Notes under the pieces: model-generated
The model's input: the letters and a program-made list of their open reading frames with translations, nothing else
Database searches by the model: none
Told to the model about the DNA's origin: nothing
Source of the DNA: an uncultured virus (IMG/VR IMGVR_UViG_2541047320_000011)
Lineage: Duplodnaviria; Heunggongvirae; Uroviricota; Caudoviricetes
IMG/VR virus record: IMGVR_UViG_2541047320_000011
Span: 1-64,000 of that record
Direction: 5' to 3' (one strand)
DNA length: 64,000 nucleotides
Made by a program: the position numbers and the translations under genes
Shown here: piece by piece, positions 576 to 63,480 of the stretch
Numbering within the stretch: the first letter of the stretch is position 1
Layout of the letters: every line of letters begins with the position of its first letter

Positions 576-3500
576 TTAAAGTGTTTCCTCATCTATACTG
601 AATATCATAGATGGTCTTTTTATTGCTGTATCTTCATTTCCATTTACAATAATTTTAGGTTCTACTTCTTTAATTCCATTTTCTTTAAACTCATATATTT
701 CTTGATAACCTGTGTCAACTTTTTTTATTTCTAATAATTTGGCATCTTTATGCATACCAGTGTTATTAGTTTTTATTTGAACTTTCAATTTATTAATTAA
801 TTGATATATTATGTCTCCTACATTTATATTTCCTTCTAATTCTCTATCTAAAGTGACCGTAATCTTATTTTCAGTATCAGTTATAGATTTGACAGTATAT
901 CTTTTTCTATTAATTAATAAGTTTGAATCTTCGGTAACACATATAGCATTATTTTCTTTATTTATAATTGCAGATGCATACATATTATTGTTATAATCAT
1001 CATATCCTTTAAATACAACATTATTTGTTCCAAGTATTATTTTATCTAATGGTATTGAAAAGGCAGCAATCTTATTGGTGAATTGAGTCATGGTTGTAAT
1101 TAATTCATTATTTATATACATCTCTATTTTTATAATTGGATTTCCAATATCATCTATTTTAACCTTAAATCCAGATATAGTTTTTTCCATAATTTCTATA
1201 GTGGAATTCATTGTATGAGTTTTATATATCATTACTGTTGTTTCTTCATTTAAAGGATTAACCCAAGTTAAATCTTCTGGCTTTACAAAATCTGGTATTT
1301 CTATTTTATTGAATATTGTAGTATCATTTCCAGCTATTTTATAATGGTCTCTAATTTTACCACTTATGTAAACAGTATTATCTGTTTTTCTAAATAATAT
1401 ATAATCATAGCCTATTTCAACATCATCAACATTATCTGCTACTTTAGTAAAATTTATTATTGTTTGATTTACTTTACTAGCTCCTAATCCTAAATTACCA
1501 TTTCTATTATGACCTTGTACCCATAACGTATTATCATTTAATAATACTAGTGTGAAGTTATGGTCACACATTACCTTTTTAGCATTAGATATACCAGGAA
1601 CTCTTTGAGGTTCTGTAACTTCATTATTATGTCCTAATCCTAATTGATATGAACCATTTAAACCTACAGAATATAAAGTACCATCATTTTTTACAAAATA
1701 TGAGAATCCAGTACCAGCAGATGCTTGTTTAATATTATCAAAATTCAATTTAGTAAAAGATGATAATTCTGTTGTTGTAGGTGGATTTAATAGTTGTCTA
1801 TATAAATTTGAACCACAACCGTAAAGTTCTCCATTTGTATTTACAATTAGAGAATGTGTTTTTGACATCCAAAATTCTTTAATATTTTCTACAGGAATTT
1901 TTATCACATTGTAAGCTTCTGGATGAGTAGGTATACTATTGCTTCCTAATAATTTATTATAGTTTAATTCATAATCTGATTCAGTATTGTGTATATGATG
2001 CGTATCTTTTACTGGGATTAAATATTGATTATTTACTAAATTAAAGTTAGTATTTGTTGTAATACTGTTTATTTTATTAAAATCAAATAAATTATAATTA
2101 AATAATTTTGCAAGAGATGCTGTAGTAGTTAATTCTCCTAATCCTAATTGACCATTAGTATTATTTCCTGCTCCTAATATAGCACCATCATTGAGAGTTA
2201 ATATTGTATAATTTGTCCCACATGATATATCTTTTACATTATCTTTAATTTTTGTAAATGTTGTTAAATTAGTAGTATTTCCAGTTCCTAATTCACCATT
2301 AGCATTATATCCTTGTGCCCATACAGTATTATCATTTTTTAATACTACTATACATCCATATCCACATTGTACCTTCTTAATATTATCTATATTATTTACT
2401 TTAGTAAATACATTTCTACTAGTATTATCGCCTAGACATAATTGTCCTAAATGGTTTCTACCAGTAACCCATAATGTATTATCTGTTTTTAATATTGCAG
2501 TAAACTCAACACCACATATTACCTCTTTAACATTCTCTATATCTACTTTTGTAAATTTTTTTGTTGCATCATTATGTCCTAATCCTAATTCACCATTATT
2601 ATTATATCCTGTAGCCCATAATGTATTATCATTTTTTATTACAAAAGAACTTGATTTATTTGCTTTGATATATTTTACATCATTTATAGGTAATTTAGTA
2701 AAAGTTTTGAAACTGTTAGGAGATGTCATTCCTAATTCACCAGATGCATTACCTCCTGAACCATATACATTTCCAGTATCTGTTAATACTAGTGTATATC
2801 TACTACCAGCACTTACTTGAACAATATTATGCCCAATATCTCCCAGTTTTGTAAATGTATTTCTACTACCACTAATATTACCTAAAGCTCCATTTGCAGT
2901 TATTCCTGTACCCCATACAGTACCATCAGTTTTTAATATTATAGTAGCATCTGTTCCTATAGAAATATCTTTAACATTATTTATATTTACTTTTGTAAAT
3001 GATAATCTAGTTGTAGTATTTCCAGTTCCTAATTCACCATTAGCATTATATCCTGTACTATATACATCTCCATTATTTTTTAGTATAAAAGTTCTATTAA
3101 CTTGACTACATACAACTTTAAAATTATTAGTAAAATTGGTTACATTATTATTTATCATCCATGACCATGAAGCTTCTGATGTAGAATTAAATGATGCTGT
3201 TCCATCCCCCATTCCTAATTGACCAATTATGTTACTACCTCTAATATAGACTTCATTTCCATCTGTTATCATAATAGTATATTCTGCTCCAGATACTGCA
3301 TGTCTTATACGCATGTTATTTGGAAGTATGGTTGTAAAACTATTAATATTAGAACTACTATTATATATTTGATTCTTATTATTATTTCCTGTAGCTAATA
3401 TTGTACCAGTACAATCAAGTATTAATTTATGTAAAGAAGTAGGCGAAGATTTACATATGTATTGTACATAAGAACGAGCAAGTGTGAAAGTATTAATAGG

Positions 3501-5471
3501 ACTTGTCAAATTGCCCAATCCTAATTGACCACTTGTGTTAAGTCCAGCAACCCATAATTCAGAATTATTTTTTAATATATATGTACTATTACCCCCAGCG
3601 TCTATTTGTTTTACATCACTAATATCTACTTTTGTGAATTCTTTTACCACATTATTATTTCCAGTTCCTAATTGACCATTAGTATTATTTCCTGTACCCC
3701 ATACAGTATCATCATTTTTTAATATTATAGTATGATTTGAACCACATGCCACATCTTTTACATTATCTATTCCAATTTTTGTAAATGTTGTTACATTTGT
3801 ATTATGTCCTAATCCTAATTGACCACTTGAATTATTTCCTGTACCCCATACAGTATCATCATTTTTTAATATTATAGTATGATTTGAACCACCACATATA
3901 TCTTTTACATTATCTATATTTATTTTTTTAAAAACATTAGTATTTGTATTATGTCCTAATCCTAATTGACCACTTGAATTATTTCCTGTACCCCATACAG
4001 TATCATCATTTTTTAATATTATAGTATGATTTGAACCACATGCCACATCTTTTACATTATCTTTAATTTTTGTAAATGTTGTTACATTTGTATTATGTCC
4101 TAATCCTAATTGACCACTTGAATTATTTCCTGTACCATATAATATCCCATTACCTTTTAATAAAAATGTATGATTATCTCCACAATATATTTTATCTCCT
4201 TTATTGTAAATTAAATAATCTCCATTTTCTTTTAATAAGTATGTATCTCTACCAACATTTATCGACTTATTATATCCTATATAATCTCTATTTTTATATG
4301 TACAATAAGTAATAAATCGTGTATCATTTACAAAGTCTTTACATCCTATATTATAAATATTATTATTTCCTGTAAAATATATTTTATTATCATTTGTTAT
4401 TGCATAAAATGTGTAAGCATTATTACTTAAAATATATTTAATATTATATAAATCTTCTATTTTAATAAAGACATTTGATATGCCACTGTTATTATTAATA
4501 CCTATATTGCTTTTATTGCCAGTTCCCCATATAGTATTATCTAATTTAAATATCATTGTGTTAATATTTCCAGCTACTACTTGTTTAACATTTGTTGCAA
4601 TTGAAGTAAATGATAATCTAGTTGTAGTATCTCCAGTTCCTAATTGACCATCACCATTATGTCCTGTACCCCATACAGTATCATCATTTTTTAATATTAT
4701 AGTATGATTTGAACCACCACATATTTCTTTTACATTATCTATTCCAATTTTTGTAAATGTTGTTACATTTGTATTATGTCCTAATCCTAATTGACCATCA
4801 CCATTATATCCAGTAGTCCATACAGTATCATCATTTTTTATTACAAATAAATTATAACAAACAATTTTTATGTATTTTACATCTTCTATAGGTAATTTGG
4901 TATAAGAGAGTTTCATTGAATAATTATCTCCAAAACCAAATAAATTTCCCCTTGTATTTCCATTTCCAACCTCTGGATTTCCTGCACCCCATACAGTACC
5001 ATCAGTTTTTAATATTACACAGATTTTTTCACTAAAACATTCAACATCTTTAACATCAGTAACTGGAATTTTTATAAATGTATTTCTAACATTTCTATCT
5101 CCCATTCCTAGTTCAGCATTATAATTTATACCAGCACCATATAATTCGCCAGAATTGGTTAATATCAAAGTAGAATATGTGTTACTTACCACTTTTTTTA
5201 TATCTGTAATACCCACATCAATTTTGGTAAATTCTTTAATAGAATATAGCATTGCATTATTATACGAAGTTAATATATCATATGCTTTTCCTACACCAAA
5301 ACCATTTAAACCACAAATCCATAAACTGCCATCAGCTTTTAATCCATACATACCATTTGCATAAGGAAATAATTTTACAAAATCATACTTATTCCAATCA
5401 GTACTAAATTCTTCAAAAAAATAGTTACTATTAAAGTATCTACCACGTTGTAACAATTTATTTTCTTTCAA
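576..5471 (-). CDS. RCC1/BLIP-II repeat beta-propeller protein, probable tail receptor-binding or adhesin protein
   Basis: 1631 aa; many repeats of the form ILKNDDTVWGTGxNxxGQLGLG; lies next to the baseplate gene. Confidence 0.85.
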   Translation of the reverse strand: MKENKLLQRGRYFNSNYFFEEFSTDWNKYDFVKLFPYANGMYGLKADGSLWICGLNGFGVGKAYDILTSYNNAMLYSIKEFTKIDVGITDIKKVVSNTYSTLILTNSGELYGAGINYNAELGMGDRNVRNTFIKIPVTDVKDVECFSEKICVILKTDGTVWGAGNPEVGNGNTRGNLFGFGDNYSMKLSYTKLPIEDVKYIKIVCYNLFVIKNDDTVWTTGYNGDGQLGLGHNTNVTTFTKIGIDNVKEICGGSNHTIILKNDDTVWGTGHNGDGQLGTGDTTTRLSFTSIATNVKQVVAGNINTMIFKLDNTIWGTGNKSNIGINNNSGISNVFIKIEDLYNIKYILSNNAYTFYAITNDNKIYFTGNNNIYNIGCKDFVNDTRFITYCTYKNRDYIGYNKSINVGRDTYLLKENGDYLIYNKGDKIYCGDNHTFLLKGNGILYGTGNNSSGQLGLGHNTNVTTFTKIKDNVKDVACGSNHTIILKNDDTVWGTGNNSSGQLGLGHNTNTNVFKKINIDNVKDICGGSNHTIILKNDDTVWGTGNNSSGQLGLGHNTNVTTFTKIGIDNVKDVACGSNHTIILKNDDTVWGTGNNTNGQLGTGNNNVVKEFTKVDISDVKQIDAGGNSTYILKNNSELWVAGLNTSGQLGLGNLTSPINTFTLARSYVQYICKSSPTSLHKLILDCTGTILATGNNNKNQIYNSSSNINSFTTILPNNMRIRHAVSGAEYTIMITDGNEVYIRGSNIIGQLGMGDGTASFNSTSEASWSWMINNNVTNFTNNFKVVCSQVNRTFILKNNGDVYSTGYNANGELGTGNTTTRLSFTKVNINNVKDISIGTDATIILKTDGTVWGTGITANGALGNISGSRNTFTKLGDIGHNIVQVSAGSRYTLVLTDTGNVYGSGGNASGELGMTSPNSFKTFTKLPINDVKYIKANKSSSFVIKNDNTLWATGYNNNGELGLGHNDATKKFTKVDIENVKEVICGVEFTAILKTDNTLWVTGRNHLGQLCLGDNTSRNVFTKVNNIDNIKKVQCGYGCIVVLKNDNTVWAQGYNANGELGTGNTTNLTTFTKIKDNVKDISCGTNYTILTLNDGAILGAGNNTNGQLGLGELTTTASLAKLFNYNLFDFNKINSITTNTNFNLVNNQYLIPVKDTHHIHNTESDYELNYNKLLGSNSIPTHPEAYNVIKIPVENIKEFWMSKTHSLIVNTNGELYGCGSNLYRQLLNPPTTTELSSFTKLNFDNIKQASAGTGFSYFVKNDGTLYSVGLNGSYQLGLGHNNEVTEPQRVPGISNAKKVMCDHNFTLVLLNDNTLWVQGHNRNGNLGLGASKVNQTIINFTKVADNVDDVEIGYDYILFRKTDNTVYISGKIRDHYKIAGNDTTIFNKIEIPDFVKPEDLTWVNPLNEETTVMIYKTHTMNSTIEIMEKTISGFKVKIDDIGNPIIKIEMYINNELITTMTQFTNKIAAFSIPLDKIILGTNNVVFKGYDDYNNNMYASAIINKENNAICVTEDSNLLINRKRYTVKSITDTENKITVTLDRELEGNINVGDIIYQLINKLKVQIKTNNTGMHKDAKLLEIKKVDTGYQEIYEFKENGIKEVEPKIIVNGNEDTAIKRPSMIFSIDEETL
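3691..4138. repeat. Near-identical 147-nt (49-codon) tandem repeats inside the RCC1 gene
   Basis: cctgtaccccatacagtatcatcattttttaatattatagtatgatttgaaccac at 3691, 3838, 3985 and 4663; partial copy at 4129. Confidence 0.9.
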
Positions 5472-13368: not shown

Positions 13369-16300
13369 TTAAGACCTAGTATTAGAAATAATTTTTTTGT
13401 TATTTTCTTCAATCATTTTCCTCATCTTCTTTTCAAATTCAGGCATTACATCTTTAGTTACATTCCCTTGTACAACAACAAATGGTGAATTATAATTAAC
13501 TGCTGATATTGGAGATGTACTTCTTGAACGAGAATTTGAAGGAGGATTATAATTAGGCATTGCAAGTTTACTTAAACCTAATTCATCTAATATGTAGTTA
13601 ATATCTTCTAATGTCTCTTTACCTTCTTTTAGCGTATCAAGCCATTCCTGCTTAGTGACAGAACCCATTGCCAACATACCATCTTCATATTTATTTATGT
13701 ATTCAATAATAGCATCTTGAAGTTTCTTAACCTCTCCATCAAGACCTACAAATTTACCACTTGAAATTGCTTCATTAATTAAATCAACTAAATTTTCATC
13801 TGAGTATTTTTTCTCTAACTCTTCTTTTAATTTATCTGCTTCTTCTTGTAGTCTGTCAGACTCCTTATCATACATATCATTGACTTGGTCGTCCACATGG
13901 TCTTGTACTAAATCCTGTAATTTCTTCTGTTCTTCTTTTAATTGTTTTTGTAAATCTTTAAGTTTCTTCTGACCACTTAAAGAGCTATCTCTTTCAGCTA
14001 TTGCTATTTGTTTTTCTAAATCACTTATTACATCTTGTTGTTCTTCATAATCATCTTTATATTTAGCTTCTTTTCTTGAATCATTGTAAGCATCTTGTTG
14101 CTTTTTAAGAGAATCAATTTTAGCTTTAGTTTCTTTATCTATTTCTTTAAGTCTCTCTTCAAGCTCTTTTTTATACATGTCTCTAATTTTTTCTTGTAGG
14201 CTTTGAGCTTCTTTAAGCTGGTCTTTATAAGCATCTTGAATCTCTTTATTTAAATCTTCTATTTCTTCTTTATTTTGTTGAATTTGTTTATTAGCATCAG
14301 GTAAATCTTTAAGAAGTAAATCTAAATATTTTTTAGCATTTTCTTCTATTTCTTTATATTTATCTGCATCTTTGTTATTTTTTAGAAACGCTAATTGTTG
14401 CTCATAATTTGTTATGTTTTTACCATCAGCAGAAAATTCAAACCCTTCTTTTGATAACCCTTCTCTTAACTCTTTTGCAGTATCTTCATAGACTTTAATA
14501 ACATCTTTAATTTCTTTAGCTTGTTTGGCCAATAACTCTTTTTTCTTTTCAATTAAGTCTAACTTTTCATCACCTTCAGCATTTTTCATAAGAATGTCAA
14601 TTAAGTCTATTTCATTTTGTATCTCAGTGACATGTTTTTGAGCTGAAGTTAAAGCAGCTTCCCTAGCAATCTCTTTTAATTCTTTTTTAAATTCCTCTGC
14701 TGCTCTAGTTGATTCTATAAGAGAATTTGTTACTTCTTGTTGAGCATCTGCAACTTTCGGTATCTCAGTAAAAGCAATCTTTAAATATTCTTCAACAACC
14801 TTTTTTTCTTCTTCTATTTTCTTCTTACGTTCTTCACTCTTTTTACTACCTTTGTCGCTCTCTGATTGCTTATCTAACTTCTCTAATTCTTTTTCTAATG
14901 ATATTAATTTTTCTTCATAACTAGTTAAGTTATCATCATCTGAAAAAGTGTACTTATAATCTTTTTTAAGTCTATCTTTTAGTCTATTCTTTTGAGTGTT
15001 AAGTGCCTTATCTTTTTGGTCTAACAATGTTAGTTCTTCTTTATATAAAGCGTTTTGTTCTTCAAGATATTTAAGTTTATCTTTTCCACTTGCATATTTC
15101 ATTTTCTTATCTAAAAGAGATATTCTATCTGTAACTTTAGATATCGCATTTTCTAATTCTTTTAGTAACTCAATGCTATATTTTACTGCTGCATCAATAG
15201 ATTTTGTATCTAATGCTATTTTAGGAGTTTTAGTTATACGAGAGAATTTCTCCGTAAGAGTTTTGACTGGAGATGTGGCTCTTGATGCTGCTCTTGAGAA
15301 TAGAGATGGTTTTGTTACAGGAGTTTCGTCACTTATTGGTGCTGGTTCTGACGTTCTAGGTTGGGCTGATAGATTAGCTGGAATTGCTTGTGGAGTTTCT
15401 ATAGAATTTATGGATTGCACACTCTTTCTATCACTCTTTAATCCACCTAATATATTATTTGCAAATTGAGAAGCAATTCCTCCTAGAGTCCCTACTGTAC
15501 GAAGATGTGCTGTTATTGTAAAACTCTTATCACTTAGTTTTTTATTTTCAGTTTGACGAATTGTTTCTAAAGCAGCAGAATTATTCGCTTTAAGTTTAAC
15601 CCACTTGTCTTTTATTGTTTTTTTATCAACACTATCTATGCCCTCAATAGCTCCTTCAATAGCTGCAATTACCTCAACTTGTTTTTCAGGAGGTAATTTT
15701 TCTATTTCAGCAATTAATGAATTAATATCTCCATTAGTTAGTGATTTTATTATATTTATTTTTACGTCTTTGTCTAGGTCTAAAGCATTTAAATTCTCAA
15801 CTTCATCTAATGCATCTGGATTATTTACTATAAGATTAGCTATAATGTCTTTGCTTTCAGGGAAATCATTATAAAGTTGTTCTATTAAATATAACTTATC
15901 TTCATTATTTAACATAAAATTAAGAACTTGATTTTTTTGTTCATCTGGTGTTGATTCATATAGTTTTGTAGCTCTCTCAAGCTCATCTGCATTTTCTACA
16001 GCAAAGCTAACAACCTTACTTTTTGTTTCTTCTGGAACATTATCATATAGTTTTTGAAATGCTTCAGCCTTTTCTGGATTTTTAATTATAACTTCGGCAA
16101 ATACTTTTTTATCTTTTTTGTCTTCTAATCCATCATATATAGATTTCATTTTATCAAAATCATCTAAACCATTTAAATTTATGCTATAATCCATAGCTAT
16201 AGTTGGATTATCCATAAGCCATTTTTGTACGGCTTCATAGTCCTTTAGATTTTTTAAACTATCAACATTATCAGTTATAAATTTATTAGTAAAAGTTGAA

Positions 16301-19300
16301 TTTGTTGGAAGATTTTTTACTATATCAGCAAAAATTTTAACTTGTTCAGTCTCAATACCTGATGATTCTAATTTTAATTTTACATCATTTCTTCCTTCAA
16401 GTTGTTTAAATGAATTTAAAGTATTTCTAAGCTCTTCATTTTTCTTTAACTTAAGTTCAATTTGTTTTGTTGGAGGTGTATTTAATATATCATCTACAAG
16501 CTTTTCTGCTTCTTTATCCCTTGAAAATGCAACACTTTTAGGATTCGGTTTGTCTTTTAAAACCTTTTTAGTAGATTCTTTAGCTTCTTTAACAGGGTCT
16601 TTCTTATCTTTATCACCATTTATTTCTTTTAATTTTTTTTGAATCCATTCAATAGCATCTGATGCTAAGTCTTTAACCTCTATAGTAAAAATTTTATTTG
16701 CTATTTCAGAAGAACTAATAGTCTCAATATCATCTTTAGCTTTTTCTATTTCAGCAATTATTTCTACTCTTTTATCTGGTGGTAAACTTTCAATAGCTTT
16801 GCCTAAAGCATCTATATCTCCATCAGATAAGGCTTTGTATATATTTATTCTTATATCCTTATCTAAAGGAATTTTATCCAATGACGCTATTAAATCTTGA
16901 ACCCCTAATTTCCCCTCATTTTGTTTCAAATATATTTCTGTAATTTTCTCATCAGGTATATGTTCTAAGGCATCTTTTAAATTAACAGAATTATACAAAG
17001 CCTCTCCCGCTTCTGCTATAAAATATGTTTTAAGTTCCGCAGGTACTTTCTTATATATCTCTGATACTTCAACAGCTTTTTCTAGTCCAACTCCATCAGC
17101 TTCTAATTTAGTTTTGAGTTCAGAAGGTACTTCGGCATACTTAGATGTTAAATCTAATATTTTTCTACCACCTTCGTCTGCTCCTTCTTCTTTTATGATA
17201 GTTTTTACTTCTTTTGGAAATTTATCATAAATTCTTTTTACTGAATCAGCTTCTTCTAATGTTGTAGTTGGATTGGCTTTTATGACTGTGGTTACTTCTT
17301 CTGGAAGTTCCTCATATCTTTGCTTTAAGTTACTTATTATTTGTTCTGCATTAGCTTGACCTGAATCATTACTTAAAAGTATTTCTGGGGTTATAGTAAA
17401 CTTACCTTTTCCAAACTTGTTATCTAAATCATTTTGAAGTTTAGTTATATCTGGGTCACCAGTCTGTAATTCCATTAATACATCCATAGTGAATTTTAAT
17501 ACATCAGTAGAACTTGCCCCTGTTCCTAATAGAGCATCTATCATGCCTTTAACTTGACTAGGAACTTCTTTAGTATTCTTAATGTCAGTTAATATATTTG
17601 CATCAACTTTTACATCTCCAGTTATTGTTGTTGTATCTAATATATTCTGAATACTATCAAATTGATTTTGGAGTTGCATTGCAAGTTTATCACCATTTGC
17701 TAAATCTAGTTTTGTTTTACCAAACTTAGCTAATAATGTATTTATAGATGTCATATCTTTAATTCCATTTGGATTTACTTGCCCAAATAAATTTTCCCAT
17801 ATATTAGCATCTGTGTTAGTTGCTTTAGCTATACTCTTAGCTGTTTTATCTATTGTTTGATTATATTTTTCTATATCTTGTGTTCTAGCAAATTCTTCAT
17901 TTGCATCCTTAAGAGTTTTAGATAAATCTCCTACATCAACTTTCCCACTTCTAACAGCAGTAAGCAATTTGTTGACTGCCTGTTCTGTGTCTACTAGAGT
18001 ATCTGGTGTAACTTCACTAAAATCAAATAAACTTTCAAGTCCAGCAAAATTAGACTTATCATTGCCTTCTAATCCACTATAAAGAGTTTTATTCTTAATG
18101 TTAGAAAATATTCCATCTCCTATTTCTTTTGAATACCCTTGAATTTTATCTACTTGATTTCTATACATTTCATCATATTTGAAATATATTTTTTCTTCTT
18201 CTGCTTTAGCTGACATTAATTCATTTCTGGCTTTATCTCTTGCTCTACCAGTTGAATTATTATATTTCTCGATTGCTTTTTCTTGTCTTTTTTTATTCTT
18301 TTCAACTTCTGCTGTATAATCTTCTTCTATTTTTACAAGCTTACCAGTTTCACTTTCTCTCATTCTTTCTTCTAAAGTTTTATTTACATCTTTACTTGGA
18401 GAATTTAATTTTTTAGCAGCAGTTTTCGCATTATCATGTTTATCATAGGACATCAATCTTTCTTTTGCATTAATAGCTCTATCTATTTCAGCAATTAAAT
18501 CAGTAACCTGACCTTTTAAAATAGGTATACCATTTTCATCTGTTCCTATAACTGCATCTGGTTTTATTTTTGCAATCTGTTGTTTTAGTTCATTTAATCT
18601 ATTATTATCTTCTTTAGACTTATTTTCTTTTTTAGATAAATTATCATATTCTTCTGCAAGTGCTTGTAATTGAACTTTTTGGCTCTCATAAGAATTAATT
18701 TGTTGTTTTGAAGCTTGTATATTTTTCTTTCTAGCTTGATATGCATTCTCTTCTCTATTTGCATAATTTTCTAACTCTCTTGCCAACAAACTTATTCCTG
18801 CAAATGCAGCAGTTAAAACTAAAGAATTTCCAACTGTAGTTGCTATACCTTTACCAAAATTTACAATGCTACTCCCTGCAAATGCCTTACCAATATTACC
18901 AAGCCCATCACTTATTGTATCTTTTCTACTTTTAGAAACAACTTTTAATTTTTGATTATATTTTTCATATGACTTTGTTCTGTCTTCATTTATTTTTATT
19001 TCTTTAGCTGTTGCCTTTTTTAAACTGTTGGTTGTCGATGTGTACTTTCCTACAATGCCATTTTGACTATTTATTGTTTTATTGACAATAGCATTTGATT
19101 TAGCATTGTTTTTTGAAGCATTAGTATTTTTATTTATAGCACTTGTATATTGATTAGTAAATTTTGTAGCTCTTTCAAAGTCTTTAAATTTAACAGATTT
19201 TCTATTATTTTGAAATGCACTTATTCCAGCACCCCATAGATTCGTGATTGGTTTGCCAGTACCTAATGCTTTAATTGTCATAAACAAAGATGATAAAGTA

Positions 19301-22300
19301 CCTATTGCTAATGGGAGTGAAATATGCATTTTGTCAGCCGCTTTAGTTATACCATTTAAAATTCCAGCAATACCAGATAATCCATCTAAACTAGTCTTAA
19401 ACATATCTGTAGATATAGTGTCTGTAACTAATTGTTTAAGACTTTCTTTTAATTTTATAATTTTACCTTCTGCTGAATTTATGAATCTCTCATTCTCTTT
19501 TTCAGCAGAGCCAAATACATCCCCATCTAACCATGCACTTTGGAATTTTTTTCGATTGTTATTAACCAGTAGCTTTTTATCTACTGCTCTGGAGGTTTCC
19601 CTCATTTTCATCGACTTGTCATTTCAAGTCCAGTCTAGCATATCTTTTGTACTCATAACAAAGACCATAAAGCCACAGAGCCTCTTGGAGATATTATATT
19701 CTATTTCTAGTTTCAATCTCTATGCGTTGCGGATGGAAAGCCTTTTAAAACTTACCTTCACCTCTGATTAGCGTATTTATTAAAATAAACTTAGCTTTCC
19801 AGATTTTCTCTCTGTTAATACTCTTAATTCTTCTATGGTAGTTGAATTAAGACGGCAATTTATTTTTACCTGATTCCAATTATCCATGATAGCCATGAAT
19901 GTATTGATGTGGTTTTTACCTGAACAAAATCTTCAATTAAGTTCGCTATACTTAACTCGTTCTCTTACGAACTGCTATATGTTTCCATATAGATGAGACT
20001 ATATCTTCATCCTATAAGGATGCTCCCCATTTCCACTATCAATAGCTTATAGTGTACGGTTTATAACCTAGTCGTTGAACCTTACTCTCTTGAGTCTTGG
20101 TTGCTGATTATCCCTATCTTTTAGTTTTTCACACTTTGGTACTAAAAGCCTAACGGGAGTTTCCAGCAATTAAAGGAGTTTATCATTATATATTACTATA
20201 TAAGGCGACTAAAATTAATCGCTTCGGCAATACCACTTTTTTGATTTTTAGTTAAAGCATCTTCTCCAACACTATGCCACTTTTCTGCCAACTCATCTAA
20301 AATTGACATCATATCTCTTACTTGGCCAGTTTGTTTATCCAACACATTTATTTTTGCTGTTTCTTGTAATGTTTTAGCAGTTTTGTTAAGGCTGATTTTT
20401 CCTGAATCTGCTGAAGCTTTGATACCACTCATGTTTATACCAATTGTTTTGAGTGCTGTACCTACTTTTTCAGCATTTTGTACAGATTCATTTCCTCCAA
20501 CTATCAAGGCAACAGAGTCTTCCATTGAAACACCTGCTGATGACAGCATACTCGCACTTCTTTGTAATGCAGCTCCTACCGATATCTTCACATAGATTCG
20601 TTACTTCTATGCAGTTCTCTTATGAACTTCTTTATATCTCTATAAAGACGAGACTATATCTTCATCCTATAAGGATGCTCCCCATTTCGATTCACTTGAA
20701 TCTACATAATAGTCGTTGAACCTTCTCCTATACGGAGCTTGGATGCTGATTGTCCAATCCAACTAATTTTTAAACATTCACATTTATCGTTTCCAATTAT
20801 GTTGTAGTCTAGTTGGCTCTAAGGAGTTTCCAGCAGTTAAAGGAGTTTTTAACTATATATTACTATATAGTGCGACTAAAGTTAATCGCCAGTTGTTATT
20901 GCAAAATTATTCTTTTATACCCTCAATTTCTCGATATTTAAAAGGGAATAGACTATACCATCATCCATTTAGGATGCTCATTGGTAGTCGTTGAGAGCTT
21001 ACCATATTCTTTTTTTGAACTTAGGTCTATCTCTGCTGATTGTCCAATCCTTAATGTTTTCAGATGATATATAAGTTTCCAAATACATCTACTAATTAAG
21101 GCTCTAAGGAGTTTCCAGCATATTCTGAGTTCAGTTGTACATTACTGTACAAAGGGGCTATTTTGTTAACCTGCATAGTTCGATAAATCAAGAAATTTTG
21201 TAAGATTATCATAATCTTTACTCATTCCTTTGATTTGAACTCTAGTATCTTTAATTGGTTTTAATGCTTTTGTCATTCCACCATAAGCAGACATAACACT
21301 AGTTAAGTACTTATCAGCAGTTTCTTGGTCTAAATCCAATTGTTATTAGCTCAAGGTTTTTTATCCTTGACTCTGGAGGTTTCCCTCATTTTCATCAGTT
21401 AGTTAATTCTAACTCAGCTTAGCATATCTTTTTTACTTATAATTAAATCATAAAGTAAATGGGAACTCTTGGAGATATTATATTCTATTTCTAGTTTCAA
21501 TCTCTATGCGTTGCGTGTGACCAATCTTTTAAAATTAGCCTTCCACTCGGATTAGCATTTTAAAGCTTTCCCGTTTCTTTCCCATTAATAATCCTAATTC
21601 TTCTATGATTGTTGAATTAAGACGGCAATTTATTCACCAACATTTGCAAAAACTGCTGATTGTTTAGCTATCTTCAAACTGTCTGATACTGATTTTACAC
21701 CAGTTTGTAGAGCTTTAGATGCCCCCTGAATTATATCTTCTGATGCTCTAGCCGTATCTTTCCCTATTGAGATTGCTTCATTTTTTACATTCTTTAATTG
21801 CTCACTTGTTCCTTCAAAATTATTAGGTGCTACTTTCATCATATCTCTTAAAGCACTATCTAATTCAACAATAGTTGTTTTAATATTTCTTACACCATTT
21901 GTAATAGACATACCTATCATATTACCTAAAGTATAAGTTCTCATCGAATTATATAGGTCACTAAAAAATCCACTTGTTGCTTTTACACTAGTTCCTAATC
22001 CTGTGAAATTAGATTTCATATTGCTTAATCTGCTTTTTATTGAATCTAATTCCTTTACTTTTTGACCTAGAGGCATACCATTTAATTGCATTAATTCTTT
22101 TTCTAGTTTATCAATTCCAGCAGTTGATTGACCCAATTCTAAACATTTTTGTCTAAGCCTATTTAAATCTGAAATTACTTTTGAAAGATTCATATTGAAC
22201 TTAGCATCTAATTTAGTATTTTTAGTAGCATTTTCTACTTCTTTAACTTTATTTTTTAATTGTTCTAGTTTTTGTATTTCTGATTGTATTTGATTAGAAG

Positions 22301-22940
22301 TTAGATTTTTAAGATTCAAATTTTGAATTGACTTTAATGAATTTGATAAAGCTTGTAGTTTAGATGTATCTGCATATCCAGACTTACCCAATGTTTCTAT
22401 TTTATTGGCTAATTTACCAGCTTCATTTTGAAGAGTTTTAAATTGAGAAGCCATTTTTGTATTCATATCTGGTATTTTCATATTAGCCAACTTAGACTGA
22501 ACATTTGATAAATCTGATAAAGCTTTTGAATTTAGACCACCTAATTTAATATTAGATAATCTTTTCAATTCTCCTGATAATTTGTTAATTTCTCCTATTT
22601 GCTTATTGTCTAAGATATTTGTCTGAGTAAATTTCTTTAATTGTCTTTGAGTAGACTCTATTTTTTTCTTAAAGTTATCGTATTGAGAAGTTAATTTGTT
22701 TATATTCCCATTTGAATTACCTTTTCCACCAAATAATCCATTTTGGGTTTCCCTACTAAGTTTATTAATTTGTTTTAATGTGTTCTCTAATTGCTTTAAA
22801 TTATTTAATGAGGATGTATTCATCTCCACATTTAACTTTATATTATTTTCTTTTGCAGATGTCTTCAGTGATGCTAATTGTTTCCTAGCTTTTTTATCAT
22901 CAAGTTCTATACTGGTCTTAATTTTAAATTCTTCTGCCAT
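13369..22940 (-). CDS. Tail tape measure protein (TP901-like core), spliced from 6 exons: 22940-21636, 21336-21169, 20911-20885, 20579-20218, 19924-19868, 19552-13369; 2700 aa
   Basis: Joined exons total 8103 nt in one frame; junctions restore tape-measure core sequence: FANVG|DLDQETADKYLTS...NYAG|NNFAITTGD|VGAALQRSAS...IAEAI|SGKNHINTFMAIMDNWNQV|KKFQ. Confidence 0.92.
19553..19867 (-). ncRNA. Group I intron 5 (315 nt, ORF-less, variant P7)
   Basis: Exon ends GGU pairing with GCC in P1 (U.G); terminal G; P4 TCTGG/TCAGA; P3 ACAGAG/CTCTGT; P7 GCATA/TATGC; homolog of intron 1. Confidence 0.85.
19925..20217 (-). ncRNA. Group I intron 4 (293 nt, IA-like, ORF-less)
   Basis: P1 GCGAU/GUCGC with U.G; TGCTGGAAACTCC, AATCAGCA, TTCAACGACTA and GAAGATATAGTCT motifs; terminal G. 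Confidence 0.92.
20580..20884 (-). ncRNA. Group I intron 3 (305 nt, IA-like, ORF-less)
   Basis: Same P1 GCGAU/GUCGC as intron 4; canonical P/Q/R/S motifs; terminal G. Confidence 0.92.
20912..21168 (-). ncRNA. Group I intron 2 (257 nt, IA-like, ORF-less)
   Basis: P1 GGUUA/UAGCC; TGCTGGAAACTCC, AATCAGCAG, TCAACGACTA and TATAGTCT motifs; terminal G; CAAAAT can pair with exon-3 ATTTTG (P10). Confidence 0.92.
21337..21635 (-). ncRNA. Group I intron 1 (299 nt, ORF-less, variant P7)
   Basis: P1 GGU/GCC; P10 TAAATT with exon GATTTA; P3 ATGGGAA/TTCCCAT; P7 GCATA/TATGC; terminal G. Confidence 0.85.
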
Positions 22941-23880: not shown

Positions 23881-26800
23881 TTAATTCAAATTTAAATTGA
23901 TGGTCTCTTCTATAATCTCATATTGTTTTTGTATATTATCTTCAATTGAAGCCATCTGTTCTTCTAATGCTTCAATTTGATTTACAATTTTATTCTGAAT
24001 TTCAATTTGGGGATATGATACCTCCAATGAATCAATCATATCATAAGTCAATTCAATTTGACCGCTTTGACCTCTAGCAATATTTTCTATATTTTTAAAT
24101 CCAAAATGTGCCAATGAATACATAATATACTTAGTATTTACTAATTTTTTGTTAAGTCTTATTATCGTTATATGACTATCAGCAACGTAGTTACCATCTA
24201 AATTGAATAATGTTACACGTCCAGCAGTACCAACACCAGTAGAATTTAACAACAAGTCTCCTTTTTGAAGATTTCTATTATCATTAATGAAATTTTTACT
24301 TACAAAATATTTTTCTTTAAAATCAAATTTATTATATCCTCTAGCTTGGCCTGATTTTATTATTTGAATGTTTGAATCCCCATATTTAGCTGATTTACCT
24401 CTAAATATATTTAGTTTTATTTCTTTTAATTTTATTTTTTTATATCTATAAAAATCATCATTTAATAACTTACCATGTATATTATTTAATTCATTTTGAT
24501 AATATTTAATCATATTAACTGCATTACTTATATCTTCACCAATTTTATTTTGTTCACTTATTTGAGGTAAAGGAATTTTTATTCTTTCAATTGAATTGGT
24601 AATATTAAAAATATTAGAACCAAAAGCTAAACTTTGAATCACTTCTTTACCTTTTTTGCTACTTAATAATGCATACAAATAGTATGGATTCACTTTGTTA
24701 TTATCAGGTCTTAGAATTCCTAAGAACCCACCTGCATGATAGTTCATATCTTCTTCAATAAATGCAACTTTACCAATATGTTTTTTACTACCACTGGATA
24801 AGGATATAAGAATATCATCTTTTTTTAACTTAGTACTTTTTTGAACATTGAAAGTATCTTTCAAAAAAATTTCTTTTTTTATTTCAAGTTGACCATTTAA
24901 TGAAATATTATCCGCTGTTAATACAATGTTATTAGTTTTTTCAATGGATAAATCTTTATCCTTATCATATACTACTCCACGCGTAAGTGGAGCTATCTCA
25001 GCTAGTTCTTTTTTTTCAAACTTTGATTTGAATTCTATTTTAGGGGTAGTTTTGATTATTTTATTAAATTTGGCTTCACTAAAATCTATTAGGTCTACAA
25101 GATTATGTATTTCAACATACTCAGACAAACTTTCATCTATATCAATTATTTCATTTAAAAAATTTTTATAAATATAATAATTGATTTTACTACTAGCTCT
25201 GCTGTTTTTAGCATTTTCATCATATAAAAGTGTATTAAGTGAGCCATCTTCATTTTCAATATATTTTATTCCTTCAGAATTTTTCCTATTTGAAAATTCA
25301 TATCCTAAAAATTTCTTTTCTAGTTTCCCTTCTTTAGCAGATACAACAATTGTTTTTTGGCATGTTGTCAAAATAAAGTATAATATTTTTTCTTTTTCAG
25401 AATTTATACAATAATTAATAAATTTTTCCTCAACAATCATATCTTTATTTGAACTATTCTTATAATTTTTATCTTTTAATAAATCTTTATATAATAAACA
25501 ATTTCTAAATTCGTTAAAGTAATTATTATACATTTCTGATTTTTTAACAAATATATTTGGATTTTTTCCTAATAAAGTAATATAATCTTTAAATGATAAT
25601 TCATGATATGTATACTCTACATATTTACTAAATATTTTTTCTTGAGATAAAACTGTAAAATCAGTTCTTTTTTTAATAAATTCTTCAATCGCTGACTCAG
25701 CCTTTCTGTAATCATCATCATTCCTCTTTTCTAAAAATAATATAATTGTACTTGTATTTGTTGCCATAAATGTATTTTTCCCAAGTTCAACTATTCCAAT
25801 TATTTTAAAATATTTTAATAAAATAGCTCGTGTTTCTGGATAAGTTTTTGGATTGGTATTTGTTAAAAAACTATTTGGTAATATTATCCCTGCAATTCCT
25901 TTTTCATTCAATAACTGCTTCGCTCTCTCAATAAACAAACATTCAATTTCTGAGCTGAAGTCAGTTAAATTTTTATATAAATCAAAAGACTTTTCCCCAT
26001 CCTTTATGCCATTTTTAAATGCTTTAACACCATAGGGTGGATTGGCAATTAATATATCATAAGATTTATTATCCATAGAATTATCTTTACATACATTTTT
26101 TAATTTACCTACATAATTAATTGAACTTGAAAAATTATCTAATCCATTTGCTTGAATTATATTGGCCTCTCCATCTCCATTTAAAAATGAACTTACTTTT
26201 GAAGTTTTTACAAGCCTATAATCTGCATCTATTCCATATATGTACTCATTTGCCCAACTGAATTCATTATTTTTCCATGAATTAAATGTGATTTTAAGTG
26301 TAGGTCTCATATTATTTGTATCATATGAGTTAATAATTAATTGCAATTCATCCATAAATTCAGTTAAAAAATGTCCACTACCTGAAGCGAAATCTATAGT
26401 ATATGGTAATACATTCTGCTCATCTGTAGCAACTTTTCTACATATAACCTCTTCTATTGGAAGTGATGTTATAATAAATTTTGCAATTGGCACAGGAGTA
26501 AAATACTGACCTACTTCCTGCTTTATACTTGTATTTAACAACAATTCAAAAAAATTACCTAGAAATTGTTGTTTATGCCCATATCTAAATTGATATGGTT
26601 GAAGTAATTCAACAATTTCTTTTACAACTATTGCATTTTCTTCAAAAGATTGTTCATTATAAACCTCTTTAAAAGAAAACTCAGAATTTTTTTGCAATCT
26701 CAGTTGAGAAAACATTTTTCTTAGGTTTTCCCTAGATTCATCATTAAATATACCAATCATTACAGAATCTAATTCATTTTCACTATAGTCAGTAACCTCT

Positions 26801-27699
26801 ATCCCCAAAAATCTTTTCATTCCAATTCTGTATAGATCATTGAGTCTTAACTGAAGAGATTCAAAAGTATCACTTTCTAACCATTGAAAATCTACAACTT
26901 CAGATTCTAATTTGTCTTCATCGATTATTTTACAAATAAATAAATTTAATATTTTATTAAACGCGTTTGGTTTATCTGATACATTATTATGTCTTAATAT
27001 TTCTAAAAATTGATAATATATATGATTACTATCATCACTTGTTAATCCTTTCAAATTGCCTCTAACTAATGATTGAGGAACAATATCATATGGTTTAACC
27101 CATTTTTCAAATATACCATTATCTTTAAAAGATTTATTCCAATGTGCATGTATTTCCTTTATATCACCTAAATACCTCCATGAATTTTCTACCTTCACTA
27201 TTTTATTTTCATATTTCACTTCATCATTTTTGATTATTGAAGTGTATAAACATAAGTATTTAGTATTTTTATTTTGAATAAAATAAGAAAAAAGCTGACC
27301 ACCATCTTTTTTCATTTTGTTAACTTCTTTATTAAATTCTTTTCCATAGGTTTTGCATTCTATCATTAAATAAGGTTTATCATACTCATCTTTAATTAAA
27401 ATATCTAATTTTCCTTTTTCTTTTTTTCCGACCAACCATTTGTTTTCAAGTATTATTCTTGATGGATTATAACCTTTTTTAAGTAATCTTACAACACACT
27501 CTAAAACAACAAAGTTTTCATTCTTGGAAAAATTAGAAGTGGTTTTGTCTGAAACAGTAATTTTTTTACCATAATCAATAGTATTTGTTTTGAAATCAAT
27601 TTTTATTGCATAATTTTCATTATCAAAATGTTTAATCCATACATTATCCTCTCCATCCATTGGAGTGAAACCTAATGTTTTTGTCATTCTTTTAAACAA
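23881..27699 (-). CDS. Single-chain restriction-modification enzyme: HsdR_N-like nuclease + amino-MTase + two HsdS-like TRDs (Type IIG/IIB-like)
   Basis: KLDILI...IECK nuclease motif; GQYFTP; DFASGSG SAM-binding motif; NPPY; two C-terminal TRD repeats. Confidence 0.88.
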   Translation of the reverse strand: MFKRMTKTLGFTPMDGEDNVWIKHFDNENYAIKIDFKTNTIDYGKKITVSDKTTSNFSKNENFVVLECVVRLLKKGYNPSRIILENKWLVGKKEKGKLDILIKDEYDKPYLMIECKTYGKEFNKEVNKMKKDGGQLFSYFIQNKNTKYLCLYTSIIKNDEVKYENKIVKVENSWRYLGDIKEIHAHWNKSFKDNGIFEKWVKPYDIVPQSLVRGNLKGLTSDDSNHIYYQFLEILRHNNVSDKPNAFNKILNLFICKIIDEDKLESEVVDFQWLESDTFESLQLRLNDLYRIGMKRFLGIEVTDYSENELDSVMIGIFNDESRENLRKMFSQLRLQKNSEFSFKEVYNEQSFEENAIVVKEIVELLQPYQFRYGHKQQFLGNFFELLLNTSIKQEVGQYFTPVPIAKFIITSLPIEEVICRKVATDEQNVLPYTIDFASGSGHFLTEFMDELQLIINSYDTNNMRPTLKITFNSWKNNEFSWANEYIYGIDADYRLVKTSKVSSFLNGDGEANIIQANGLDNFSSSINYVGKLKNVCKDNSMDNKSYDILIANPPYGVKAFKNGIKDGEKSFDLYKNLTDFSSEIECLFIERAKQLLNEKGIAGIILPNSFLTNTNPKTYPETRAILLKYFKIIGIVELGKNTFMATNTSTIILFLEKRNDDDYRKAESAIEEFIKKRTDFTVLSQEKIFSKYVEYTYHELSFKDYITLLGKNPNIFVKKSEMYNNYFNEFRNCLLYKDLLKDKNYKNSSNKDMIVEEKFINYCINSEKEKILYFILTTCQKTIVVSAKEGKLEKKFLGYEFSNRKNSEGIKYIENEDGSLNTLLYDENAKNSRASSKINYYIYKNFLNEIIDIDESLSEYVEIHNLVDLIDFSEAKFNKIIKTTPKIEFKSKFEKKELAEIAPLTRGVVYDKDKDLSIEKTNNIVLTADNISLNGQLEIKKEIFLKDTFNVQKSTKLKKDDILISLSSGSKKHIGKVAFIEEDMNYHAGGFLGILRPDNNKVNPYYLYALLSSKKGKEVIQSLAFGSNIFNITNSIERIKIPLPQISEQNKIGEDISNAVNMIKYYQNELNNIHGKLLNDDFYRYKKIKLKEIKLNIFRGKSAKYGDSNIQIIKSGQARGYNKFDFKEKYFVSKNFINDNRNLQKGDLLLNSTGVGTAGRVTLFNLDGNYVADSHITIIRLNKKLVNTKYIMYSLAHFGFKNIENIARGQSGQIELTYDMIDSLEVSYPQIEIQNKIVNQIEALEEQMASIEDNIQKQYEIIEETINLNLN

Positions 27700-51043: not shown

Positions 51044-51134
51044 TGGAAGAGAGGAAGGGATTTGAACCCTCGTATCAAATTAATTGAACTAATAGTTTAG
51101 CAAACTATCCTCTTTACCACTTGAGTACCTCTCC
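51044..51134 (-). tRNA. tRNA-Ser (GCT)
   Basis: Cloverleaf with long variable arm; anticodon arm ATAGT-TTGCTAA-ACTAT; encoded CCA. Confidence 0.9.
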
Positions 51135-51139
51135 ATATT

Positions 51140-51216
51140 TGGTAGGAATAATAGGAGTCGAACCTATGACCTTTCGGGTATAAACCGAATGCTCTAACCA
51201 CCTGAGCTATATCCCT
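51140..51216 (-). tRNA. tRNA-Ile (TAT)
   Basis: AGGGATA/TATTCCT acceptor stem; anticodon arm TTCGG-TTTATAC-CCGAA; TTCGA T-loop; A73 then CCA. Confidence 0.9.
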
Positions 51217-57692: not shown

Positions 57693-58637
57693 TTACTGTT
57701 CAAGGTATCCAATTACATTTGCATAGAAACGAGAATCATCGTCCACTTCTAGTTGTTTACTTATAAATTGACTGGCATATTTATTAAATGTTTTATAACC
57801 CCCTCCAATGCCAACAACATAATATCCATCCAGCTGACCAAATTTATTAGTAATTTTATTAATCATATCATCAATAATAGGGTACATGGCATCAATATAA
57901 TCATCTAATTTGTATTTAGAACCCTCATACTCTATAACATCAATATCATTTCTTAATATTACATCTATTTGACTTATTTTTATATCTGCACCATTTTTAC
58001 TATTAAATTTATTTGCTATTGCTGTTTCAAAATCTATGATTCCTTTTTCTATAGTGTCTGTTATATTAGGATAGTACATATCATCCTCGTAATCATATTC
58101 ATAATTACATAAATCTGTAGTACTGCCTCCAACATCTATTCCTAGAATATTCTGTTTAGTAGTAATCTTGTCTACAAGTGAAATAAATCCTGAATATCCT
58201 TCTGCTTTAACATCAACATTAAGTATTTCAAAAGTCTTTTGTTTTCCATCAATAGTAATTTTTATTTCTCCAGGTTGAATAAAAATATCTTGAAATAATT
58301 TTAAATATTTTTCATTAAACATTTGAGTTGGTGGTAATCCAGTTATCAATTCCACAGAAAGATTATCCTCATCAGGAAATATTTCATGTATCATGACTAA
58401 AACTTGTTCTAATAAATTTTTTCTAGTATGTTTAAGAACATTATTATTTAAATCTCCTACACCTAGATAGATTACCTTACCATCTTTTTTCATAACACGT
58501 GCTTTTGGTGATATTGTTTTTTCAAATTGAAGTTTATTTGGTAACTTTTTTAAAATTAATTCTTTTTCAATATATGCTGCTGAATTAAGCATACTATTAC
58601 CTAAGTCTACTGCAACTTTTACTTTTTCTTTTTTCAT
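57693..58637 (-). CDS. parM: ParM/StbA-like actin ATPase for plasmid segregation
   Basis: AVDLGNS, TGLPP, AEG, GIDVGGSTTD and GIGGG actin-fold motifs. Confidence 0.9.
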   Translation of the reverse strand: MKKEKVKVAVDLGNSMLNSAAYIEKELILKKLPNKLQFEKTISPKARVMKKDGKVIYLGVGDLNNNVLKHTRKNLLEQVLVMIHEIFPDEDNLSVELITGLPPTQMFNEKYLKLFQDIFIQPGEIKITIDGKQKTFEILNVDVKAEGYSGFISLVDKITTKQNILGIDVGGSTTDLCNYEYDYEDDMYYPNITDTIEKGIIDFETAIANKFNSKNGADIKISQIDVILRNDIDVIEYEGSKYKLDDYIDAMYPIIDDMINKITNKFGQLDGYYVVGIGGGYKTFNKYASQFISKQLEVDDDSRFYANVIGYLEQ

Positions 58638-62766: not shown

Positions 62767-63480
62767 ATGCTAAATATATACATAACTAATTTAGGGAAAT
62801 ATAACGAAGGTGAACTAATAGGGGAATGGGCTGAACTTCCAGTAAACGAGGAAGAATTAGAAGAAATATTAGATAGAATAGGGATAAATGAAGAATATGA
62901 GGAGTATTTCATAACAGATTTTGAAACAGATATAGAAGGGTTAGAAATAAGTGAACATAGCAATATAGAGCAACTAAATGAATTAGCAAAAGAGCTTGAA
63001 GAGTTAGAAGAATATGAGATTGAACAATTAAAGGCTTTACTTGGATGTGGATACATTGATTTTTATGACATGCTTGAAGGGGATATTTGCAGATTATCAG
63101 GTAATTATACTTTTATACAACTTGATGACAGGTCACTATTGGATGATGAAAATTTAGGACGTAGTTACATAGAAGAAATATGTTGTGGTGATTTATCTTG
63201 TATAGAAAATATTGCTTACTACTTTGACATAGAAGCATTTTCAAGAGATTTACGTTTTGATAGAGATATGATTATTGAAAATTTATACGAAGAAGATATA
63301 GAATATTATGAAAATATGACAGATATTGAATTTGCAGAGAATTATATTGAACGATTAGGAGATATTGAAGAGTTAGGTCAAGAAACACTTGAAAGATACT
63401 TTAATTATGAGCTATATGGAACTGACTTACGTTATGAGAATATTTGTATAGCATCAAATTATTTAGCTATAGTTTCTTAA
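62767..63480 (+). CDS. ardA: Antirestriction protein ArdA
   Basis: IYITNLGKYNEGELIGEW.ELP; EEYFITDFE; YFD.EAF.RDL; strongly acidic. Confidence 0.92.
   Translation: MLNIYITNLGKYNEGELIGEWAELPVNEEELEEILDRIGINEEYEEYFITDFETDIEGLEISEHSNIEQLNELAKELEELEEYEIEQLKALLGCGYIDFYDMLEGDICRLSGNYTFIQLDDRSLLDDENLGRSYIEEICCGDLSCIENIAYYFDIEAFSRDLRFDRDMIIENLYEEDIEYYENMTDIEFAENYIERLGDIEELGQETLERYFNYELYGTDLRYENICIASNYLAIVS

Follow-up and report, generated by a model that had tools for sequence, protein, structure and literature searches.

Group I introns in phage tape measure genes have been described before. In prophages of the Bacillus cereus group, introns named TMP-IVS1, IVS2 and IVS3a/b occupy three tape measure sites (Tourasse and Kolsto 2008, PMC2504315; for this and all other cited articles, our statements refer to excerpts of the text), and the tape measure gene of Lactobacillus phage JCL1032 is tabulated as intron-bearing in the same work. 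Genes with several introns and very short exons are also on record: orf142 of Staphylococcus phage Twort holds three group I introns and a 23-nt exon, with exon skipping between two similar introns, and in the 23S rRNA gene of Coxiella, two introns enclose an exon of 34 nt (PMC10136302). In cluster J mycobacteriophages, group I introns are located in capsid and minor tail genes and are spliced during late expression (PMC3706429). Here, we analyzed the first 64 kb (64,000 nucleotides, hereafter "the window") of a 135,822-bp IMG/VR virus record, IMGVR_UViG_2541047320_000011, which is rated 100% complete. In this window, we find the tape measure gene of a phiCD211-like Clostridioides difficile phage, or phage-plasmid, split by five small, endonuclease-free group I introns of three lineages that most probably represent selfish passengers, a reading to which we assign a probability of about 0.9.

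This kind of arrangement is already known, and the present case is an extreme form of it that brings no new mechanism. A preliminary description of the window had implied greater novelty than this, but tape-measure group I introns, phage genes with several introns, and micro-exons had all been published, and its premise that DNA-metabolism genes are the main hosts of phage group I introns finds no support, as tape-measure, terminase, tail-tube and capsid genes of Gram-positive phages are published hosts (PMC2504315, PMC3706429). As in the B. cereus-group prophages, the introns interrupt the tape measure gene at several sites in its conserved part, with a patchy distribution among related prophages. 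They also share with these introns a general lack of complete endonuclease genes, early in-frame stops, which are a published trait of bacterial and phage group I introns, and the occurrence of related introns at different sites and of different introns at one site (PMC2504315). The host genus differs, and so do the numbers, with five introns in the window, six in relatives and 12 sites across the family, as opposed to three sites and at most two introns reported per gene in the B. cereus group (IVS1 and IVS3a in E33L). In addition, whereas the P1 helix of homologous B. cereus-group introns is altered to fit new sites, the guide sequences are constant here and face the same 3 to 5 exon bases (PMC2504315). 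The resemblance to Twort orf142 lies in the presence of several introns devoid of an open reading frame (ORF) in a single late or structural gene, together with a very short exon; unlike orf142, with its three introns and exon skipping, the gene studied here has five, and the introns flanking both of its micro-exons belong to different lineages (PMC10136302). Cluster J introns similarly reside in virion structural genes of only some relatives, but these are found one per gene, once with an endonuclease gene, and in a high-GC host (PMC3706429).

Before splicing, the tape measure gene spans positions 22940..13369 on the minus strand, and the ORF track breaks it into the fragments 21630..22940, 21166..21339, 20196..20591, and 13369..19611. 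Excision of the five inserts (Table 1) yielded a single 8103-nt frame of 2700 codons with its sole stop at the end, and every insert was preceded by T (U in the RNA) and terminated in G (5/5). The preliminary description was right on these points, including all numbers and coordinates, and the junction peptide it had proposed is present in the translation, as are, in the sequence, its two micro-exons of 27 and 57 nt and its two split codons, at the exon 4/5 and exon 5/6 joints. It also follows from the frame that, as claimed, the full-length protein needs all five introns out. The TP901-type core, in which the inserts are located, is the most conserved stretch of the gene, and the last 300 nt of exon 1 share 94-100% identity with relatives.

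The identity of the gene was established on the natural allele of AR1086-1 (L002), where sites 1 to 3 are intron-free. There, the core domain of the TP901 tape measure family scored above curated cut-offs both for PF10145 (73.9 bits, cut-off 33.2, residues 387-607) and for TIGR01760 (59.4 bits, cut-off 28.8, residues 344-603), in both cases unbroken over sites 1, 2, and 3, which correspond to residues 435, 491, and 500 of this protein. The earlier claim that removing the inserts restores the TP901-type core across every junction thus held over junctions 1 to 3. Exon 4 of the window, taken alone, still matched PF10145 (43.5 bits), with TIGR01760 falling under its cut-off (24.4 bits), and no Pfam or NCBIfam family matched exon 6. 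Annotation pipelines call two to four separate coding sequences (CDS) in relatives, and one relative (L029) lacks exons 2 to 5, as might be expected if the tape measure gene were a pseudogene of a defective prophage, with the inserts as decayed insertions and the frame a mere relic. This view appears exceedingly improbable given that 2700 codons are free of stops once the five inserts are removed, that the ribozyme cores are intact and display compensatory changes, that exact joints occur in RNA libraries, and that the IMG/VR record is rated complete.

Table 1 Exons and introns of the tape measure gene in the window.
Feature	Position	Strand	Length (nt)	Characteristics
Exon 1	21636..22940	-	1305	435 codons; ATG at 22940; ends in phase 0; ORF 21630..22940
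Intron 1	21337..21635	-	299	Group I, lineage X1; no Rfam match; P1-P9.2 fold with covariation
Exon 2	21169..21336	-	168	98-99% identity with relatives; adjoins exon 1 in alleles without intron 1
Intron 2	20912..21168	-	257	Group I, lineage Y; RF00028, 46.2 bits
Exon 3 (micro-exon)	20885..20911	-	27	9 codons; 100% identity in close relatives
Intron 3	20580..20884	-	305	Group I, lineage Z; RF00028, 86.9 bits
Exon 4	20218..20579	-	362	Part of PhageMin_Tail / TP901 core
Intron 4	19925..20217	-	293	Group I, lineage Z; RF00028, 104.5 bits
Exon 5 (micro-exon)	19868..19924	-	57	Defined by frame and intron-less alleles
Intron 5	19553..19867	-	315	Group I, lineage X1; no Rfam match; covariation-supported fold
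Exon 6	13369..19552	-	6184	Includes the stop codon

The window is most closely related to the phiCD211 / phiCDIF1296T family of large C. difficile phages and phage-plasmids, in which we mapped intron presence by blastn of the exons. Wherever an insert was absent, the exons of the relatives adjoined to the base at the predicted junctions, and a natural intron-less allele was found for each of the five sites. The preliminary description had named this alignment beforehand as a test able to refute it, and its junctions proved right to the base. In phiCD211 itself (L001), all five inserts are absent and exons 1-2-3-4 and 4-5-6 are contiguous to the base, while AR1086-1 carries intron 4 only, in a copy 98% identical to that of the window. 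Intron 1 is absent, with exons 1 and 2 adjoining, from L001, L002, L005, and others; introns 2 and 3 from L001, L002, and L004, such that exon 3 directly abuts exons 2 and 4; intron 4 from L001 and L005; and intron 5 from L001, L002, and L005, again with adjoining exons. These alleles place the junctions within 0 to 5 nt, and the choice within this ambiguity was made because of the terminal-G rule, which selects the coordinates first proposed.

The phiCD211 record (LN681537.2) encodes the same tape measure gene; in the aligned parts, its exons share 84-100% identity with those of the window. Instead of the five introns of the window, this gene contains two different ones, at two additional positions within exon 4 (L001:3569-4164), which measure 288 and ~275 nt and surround a 33-nt micro-exon. 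Only the second is annotated in the record ('Intron_gpI'), and the gene is split there into a 'Minor tail protein' and a 'Tail tape measure protein'. The introns of the window were not described in the excerpts retrieved by a literature search on phiCD211 or C. difficile phage introns, a search that did not cover Garneau 2018; the excerpts that dealt with phiCD211 and introns concerned only group II introns and the ClosTron.

Judged from their sequences, the five inserts are ORF-less group I introns of three lineages, designated X1 (introns 1 and 5), Y (intron 2), and Z (introns 3 and 4). Introns 1 and 5 are paralogues with 77.5% identity, introns 3 and 4 are 71.3% identical, and intron 2 is 71.6% identical to the second phiCD211 intron. 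We compared all five to the Rfam group I model RF00028, seeking matches at E-values up to 1 and using its gathering score of 50 bits. Introns 4 and 3 scored above this threshold (Table 1), and the alignments of introns 2 to 4 extended over the full length of the model (positions 1-253), with P1 present. C. difficile is known for IStrons, and the inserts might in principle represent IStrons, group II introns, miniature inverted-repeat transposable elements, or assembly artefacts. Hardly any weight can be given to this idea: no transposase or TnpB gene of the IStron type was found in the inserts, whose longest stop-free stretches in any frame range from 33 to 72 aa, in line with their earlier description as ORF-less; their sizes, 257 to 315 nt, are far below that of group II introns; a group I core was detected by Rfam and by covariation; and complete plasmid and phage records of several sources have these elements at the same bases.

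For the class formed by introns 1 and 5, a structure was derived with RNAalifold and a scripted helix table from an alignment of nine sequences, comprising these two introns, four from phiCD211-family relatives, two AR9 introns, and one intron of phiR1-37. RNAalifold predicted 42 pairs, 30 of which displayed compensatory changes. The U.G pair at the splice site was kept in all nine sequences, and P1 co-varied across them, exon GGU and guide GCC alternating with exon GCU and guide GGC. P1, P2, P3, P4, P5, P7, P7.1, P8, and P9.2 pair in 9/9 sequences with few mismatches (including a 2-bp mismatch in P8 of intron 5), P7 forming a pseudoknot with P3 in the helix table, and compensatory changes are many in P3, P7.1, and P8. 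P9 and a GAAA-capped P9.1 pair in all five aligned sequences that possess them. Subgroup IA, to which the class may belong, typically has a helix that separates P7 from the 3' strand of P3. All five introns of the window end in the terminal G (omega G) of group I introns.

This class extends to other phages. The 3' third of introns 1 and 5 is 87-89% identical to the gyrase A introns of Bacillus phage AR9/PBS1 and Yersinia phage phiR1-37 (87% between intron 5 and an AR9 gyrA intron), and the AR9 gyrA CDS is annotated as a three-piece join around these relatives. The two AR9/PBS1 gyrA introns and that of phiR1-37 share helices and conserved core strings with introns 1 and 5, but they reside in a DNA-metabolism gene of jumbo phages rather than in a tape measure gene, and those of AR9 have an extra 5' hairpin insert of ~55 nt. 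Separately, 3' domains of the class were observed just upstream of the major tail protein CDS of Staphylococcus phage vB-SscS-F1 (L014:701-791) and just upstream of the terminase large subunit CDS of Clostridium phage vB_CpeS-1181 (L015:641-790), each time with an ORF before the domain, and these copies are probably endonuclease-carrying relatives. In the latter copy, from C. perfringens, the P7 strands co-vary (GCGUA with UACGC), the sole P7 covariation seen.

Splicing was examined in assembled RNA data, namely Logan contigs from three RNA-seq runs of one study (X1, X2, and X4) and from a further run, X5. The strain in X1, X2, and X4 harbors a phage with introns 4 and 5 and without introns 1 to 3, and the X5 strain lacks all five. 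All three runs of the former contain both intron-bearing contigs and exact joints for introns 4 and 5. In run X1, a contig including intron 5 (19523-19889) has a depth of 31.3, and the joint skipping its 315 nt, located with a 5-nt ambiguity from an A run, has a depth of 33.4; for intron 4, the corresponding depths are 6.1 for the intron contig (19895-20246) and 52.6 for the joint skipping 293 nt, which has a 1-nt ambiguity. Exon 5 forms a separate 62-nt node at depth 59, approximately the sum of the spliced and unspliced branches on either side. The exons on both flanks are represented by single long contigs without variant branches, each listed difference from the window being carried at whole depth, and we see a single genotype in spliced and unspliced form. 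We read the joints as in vivo splicing of introns 4 and 5 in this relative, at the junctions first proposed, with intron 4 mostly spliced and intron 5 only about half, as far as rough mean contig depths can tell. No exon-skipped joint was found among the contigs of the RNA runs, although contigs drop rare forms. In run X5, which stems from a phiCD211-like strain, a contig over 20413-20579 showed no insert at either phiCD211-type site in exon 4, and this reflects either spliced RNA or an allele without the phiCD211-type introns.

Several observations weigh against the overall interpretation. Intron 2 falls just under the gathering score of RF00028 (E 6.7e-10), and introns 1 and 5 have no match at all up to an E-value of 1, so that the search with group I models suggested in the preliminary description passed the gathering score for introns 3 and 4 only; the Rfam group I model is itself stated to be incomplete for phage introns (PMC11878797, 2025). 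P7 is invariant in the nine-sequence alignment, and covariation neither supports nor contradicts this helix. In the RNA runs, introns 1 to 3 have zero depth, their source strains being without them, and the evidence for introns 4 and 5 consists of assembled contigs of one study, from a relative, in libraries that may contain DNA. A mixture of two otherwise identical phages could in principle give both forms. Finally, the reading of the introns as passengers is drawn from presence/absence polymorphism.

Together, the anatomy of the gene, the intron-less alleles, the fold, and the RNA joints are consistent with the following course, in which we infer the splicing chemistry as well as the removal of introns 1 to 3. 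The late transcript would hold all five introns, each folding independently, with an internal guide pairing to the last 3 to 5 exon bases and forming a U.G pair where the first cut falls. Free guanosine would make this cut, the terminal G would then occupy the guanosine site, and the exons would be joined. The stops of the upstream frame end at nt 6, 3, 3, 22, and 88 of introns 1 to 5, introns 2 and 3 opening with an in-frame TAA, and such stops near the intron starts would bar ribosomes from the ribozyme core. Intron 5 has both the latest stop and incomplete splicing, and the two may be linked. Only a transcript freed of all five introns would encode the 2700-residue ruler protein. Few copies of the tape measure protein are needed per virion, a low requirement that may explain how imperfect splicing is tolerated.

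To assess how the introns are distributed, we surveyed 30 loci, i.e. the window, 11 from GenBank/PLSDB, and 18 from IMG/VR, with some records duplicated between these collections. These hold 73 intron copies, every locus having at least one and each gene one to six. The insertion sites number 12 in ~620 nt of coding sequence when a divergent tape measure type is included (L009, L031-L035). All five introns of the window recur in a single other locus (L021, for 2/30 loci), and this set is short of the family maximum: two IMG/VR relatives have six introns, combining introns 1, 2, 3, and 5 with both phiCD211 introns (L023:5306-7656 and L025:5306-7656). Four introns are found in L026, the set {1,4,5} in L004, L006, and L030, the set {2,3} in L005 and L019, and intron 4 alone in six loci, other sets being {2,3} with the second phiCD211 intron and the pair of phiCD211 introns. 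Across this mosaic, which would most simply result from ordinary recombination within near-identical exons, the exons of close relatives otherwise remain 90-100% identical, and independent records carry the same elements. In one locus (L029:4458-4758), exons 1 and 6 are linked by a single hybrid intron, in which the 5' half comes from intron 1 and the 3' half from intron 5, with a crossover in the identical core of the two. Exons 2 to 5 are absent there, the P3 strands are mismatched, and exons 1 and 6 would be out of frame, which makes this locus either a defective deletion via recombination between paralogous introns or an assembly collapse.

This distribution bears directly on the function proposed in the preliminary description, in which the five ribozymes are retained as a regulatory checkpoint tying tail assembly to GTP/Mg or growth state, as a timing or quality gate. 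The protein does require the removal of all five introns, and intron 5 is much less completely spliced than intron 4 in the relative (run X1), and therefore splicing could limit yield; these depth figures are, however, rough contig means. Among relatives with 90-100% identical exons, the number of introns ranges from one to six, in numerous combinations, phiCD211 lacks all five, and the set, being dispensable in relatives, is therefore unlike a needed regulator. In addition, Rfam found no sensor domain or riboswitch-like element in the region. We thus regard the checkpoint as unsupported and very unlikely. Instead, because close relatives carry none to all five of them, the introns behave as dispensable selfish elements, and on this polymorphism we read them as selfish passengers rather than regulators.

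How the introns came to occupy these sites can be approached from the exon bases that precede them. The intron 1/5 type follows an exon end GGU at 3/3 sites, the type of the first phiCD211 intron follows GCU at 4/4, the intron 2 type GGU at 2/2, and the intron 3/4 type GCGAU at 3/3. Within each lineage, the guide sequence is unchanged, and the DNA around the sites is otherwise unlike. A given site can also hold different elements, as site 3 is occupied by an intron 3-type element in the window and by an intron 4-type element in L010 (91% identical to intron 4, 71% to intron 3). Over time, introns may have colonised nearby sites whose 5' exon end fits the guide, and the tape-measure core of phiCD211-like phages could, as a tentative and rather doubtful possibility, be an arena for guide-directed moves by endonuclease-free group I introns, through reverse splicing or a similar RNA-guided route. 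In its favor, each lineage is found only behind exon bases that match its unchanged guide (73 copies, 12 sites), but the same pairing is needed for splicing, and survivorship could yield an identical pattern. In the divergent genes, an intron 4-type element lies 14 nt past site 3, behind a 16/17-nt match to its home 5' flank, and this match, exceeding the guide pairing, hints at DNA-level recognition. Exon co-conversion was considered for this site and rejected: the intron-less L034 already carries the flank, which therefore reflects target similarity. As of a 2014 review, spread of the reverse-splicing type was still without direct experimental evidence (PMC3984707). If such guide-directed spread were true, the family would offer a tractable system for an RNA-guided pathway.

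Searches of the whole 135,822-bp genome, which includes the window, revealed no intron copies outside the tape measure gene and no homing endonuclease matching HNH, HNH_3, GIY-YIG, LAGLIDADG_1, or LAGLIDADG_3, the PD-(D/E)xK and EDxHD families not being searched. In the RNA runs, a 32-nt segment of ribozyme core (20026-20057) is matched by other contigs that continue into unrelated sequence (11.8 kb in run X5, 301-371 nt in runs X1 and X4); these share only this core and therefore point to further group I introns in the host strains or their other elements.

The tape measure gene belongs to a minus-strand virion-structure module, with terminase and tail proteins nearby, and its surroundings also include an Eco57I-like methylase, BRO-type proteins, a ParM-like protein, and ArdA. 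A 1272-residue ORF (23881-27699, minus strand), located between the tape measure gene and the tail genes, combines an Eco57I-type methylase domain with Methylase_S domains for type I specificity. On the downstream side of the tape measure gene, a 1631-residue protein (576-5471, minus strand) consists largely of RCC1-like repeats (PF25390, 672 bits) and is possibly a tail fibre or a protein that binds the host. At 51047-51216 on the minus strand, two tRNA genes (70.9 and 57 bits) lie side by side, the second with a long variable arm. The ParM/actin-like segregation protein (57693-58637, minus strand) and the ArdA antirestriction protein (62767-63480, plus strand) fit a plasmid-like lifestyle because related records are filed as circular plasmids.

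Relative to the systems described so far, this case adds five introns, and six in relatives, within 614 nt of exon, a C. difficile host, public RNA support for splicing (introns 4 and 5, in a relative), an intron class missed by Rfam, and an unusually complete set of presence and absence alleles. Two of the five introns are unseen by the standard Rfam model, which represents a concrete blind spot for phage introns. The family is also convenient for studying how ORF-less group I introns spread and how tandem ribozymes splice around exons of 27 to 57 nt. For annotation, pipelines currently split the gene into two to four CDS labeled 'hypothetical' or 'minor tail protein', and once the introns are known, the ruler protein of these C. 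difficile phages, whose tails are unusually long, can be given its true length of 2700 residues.

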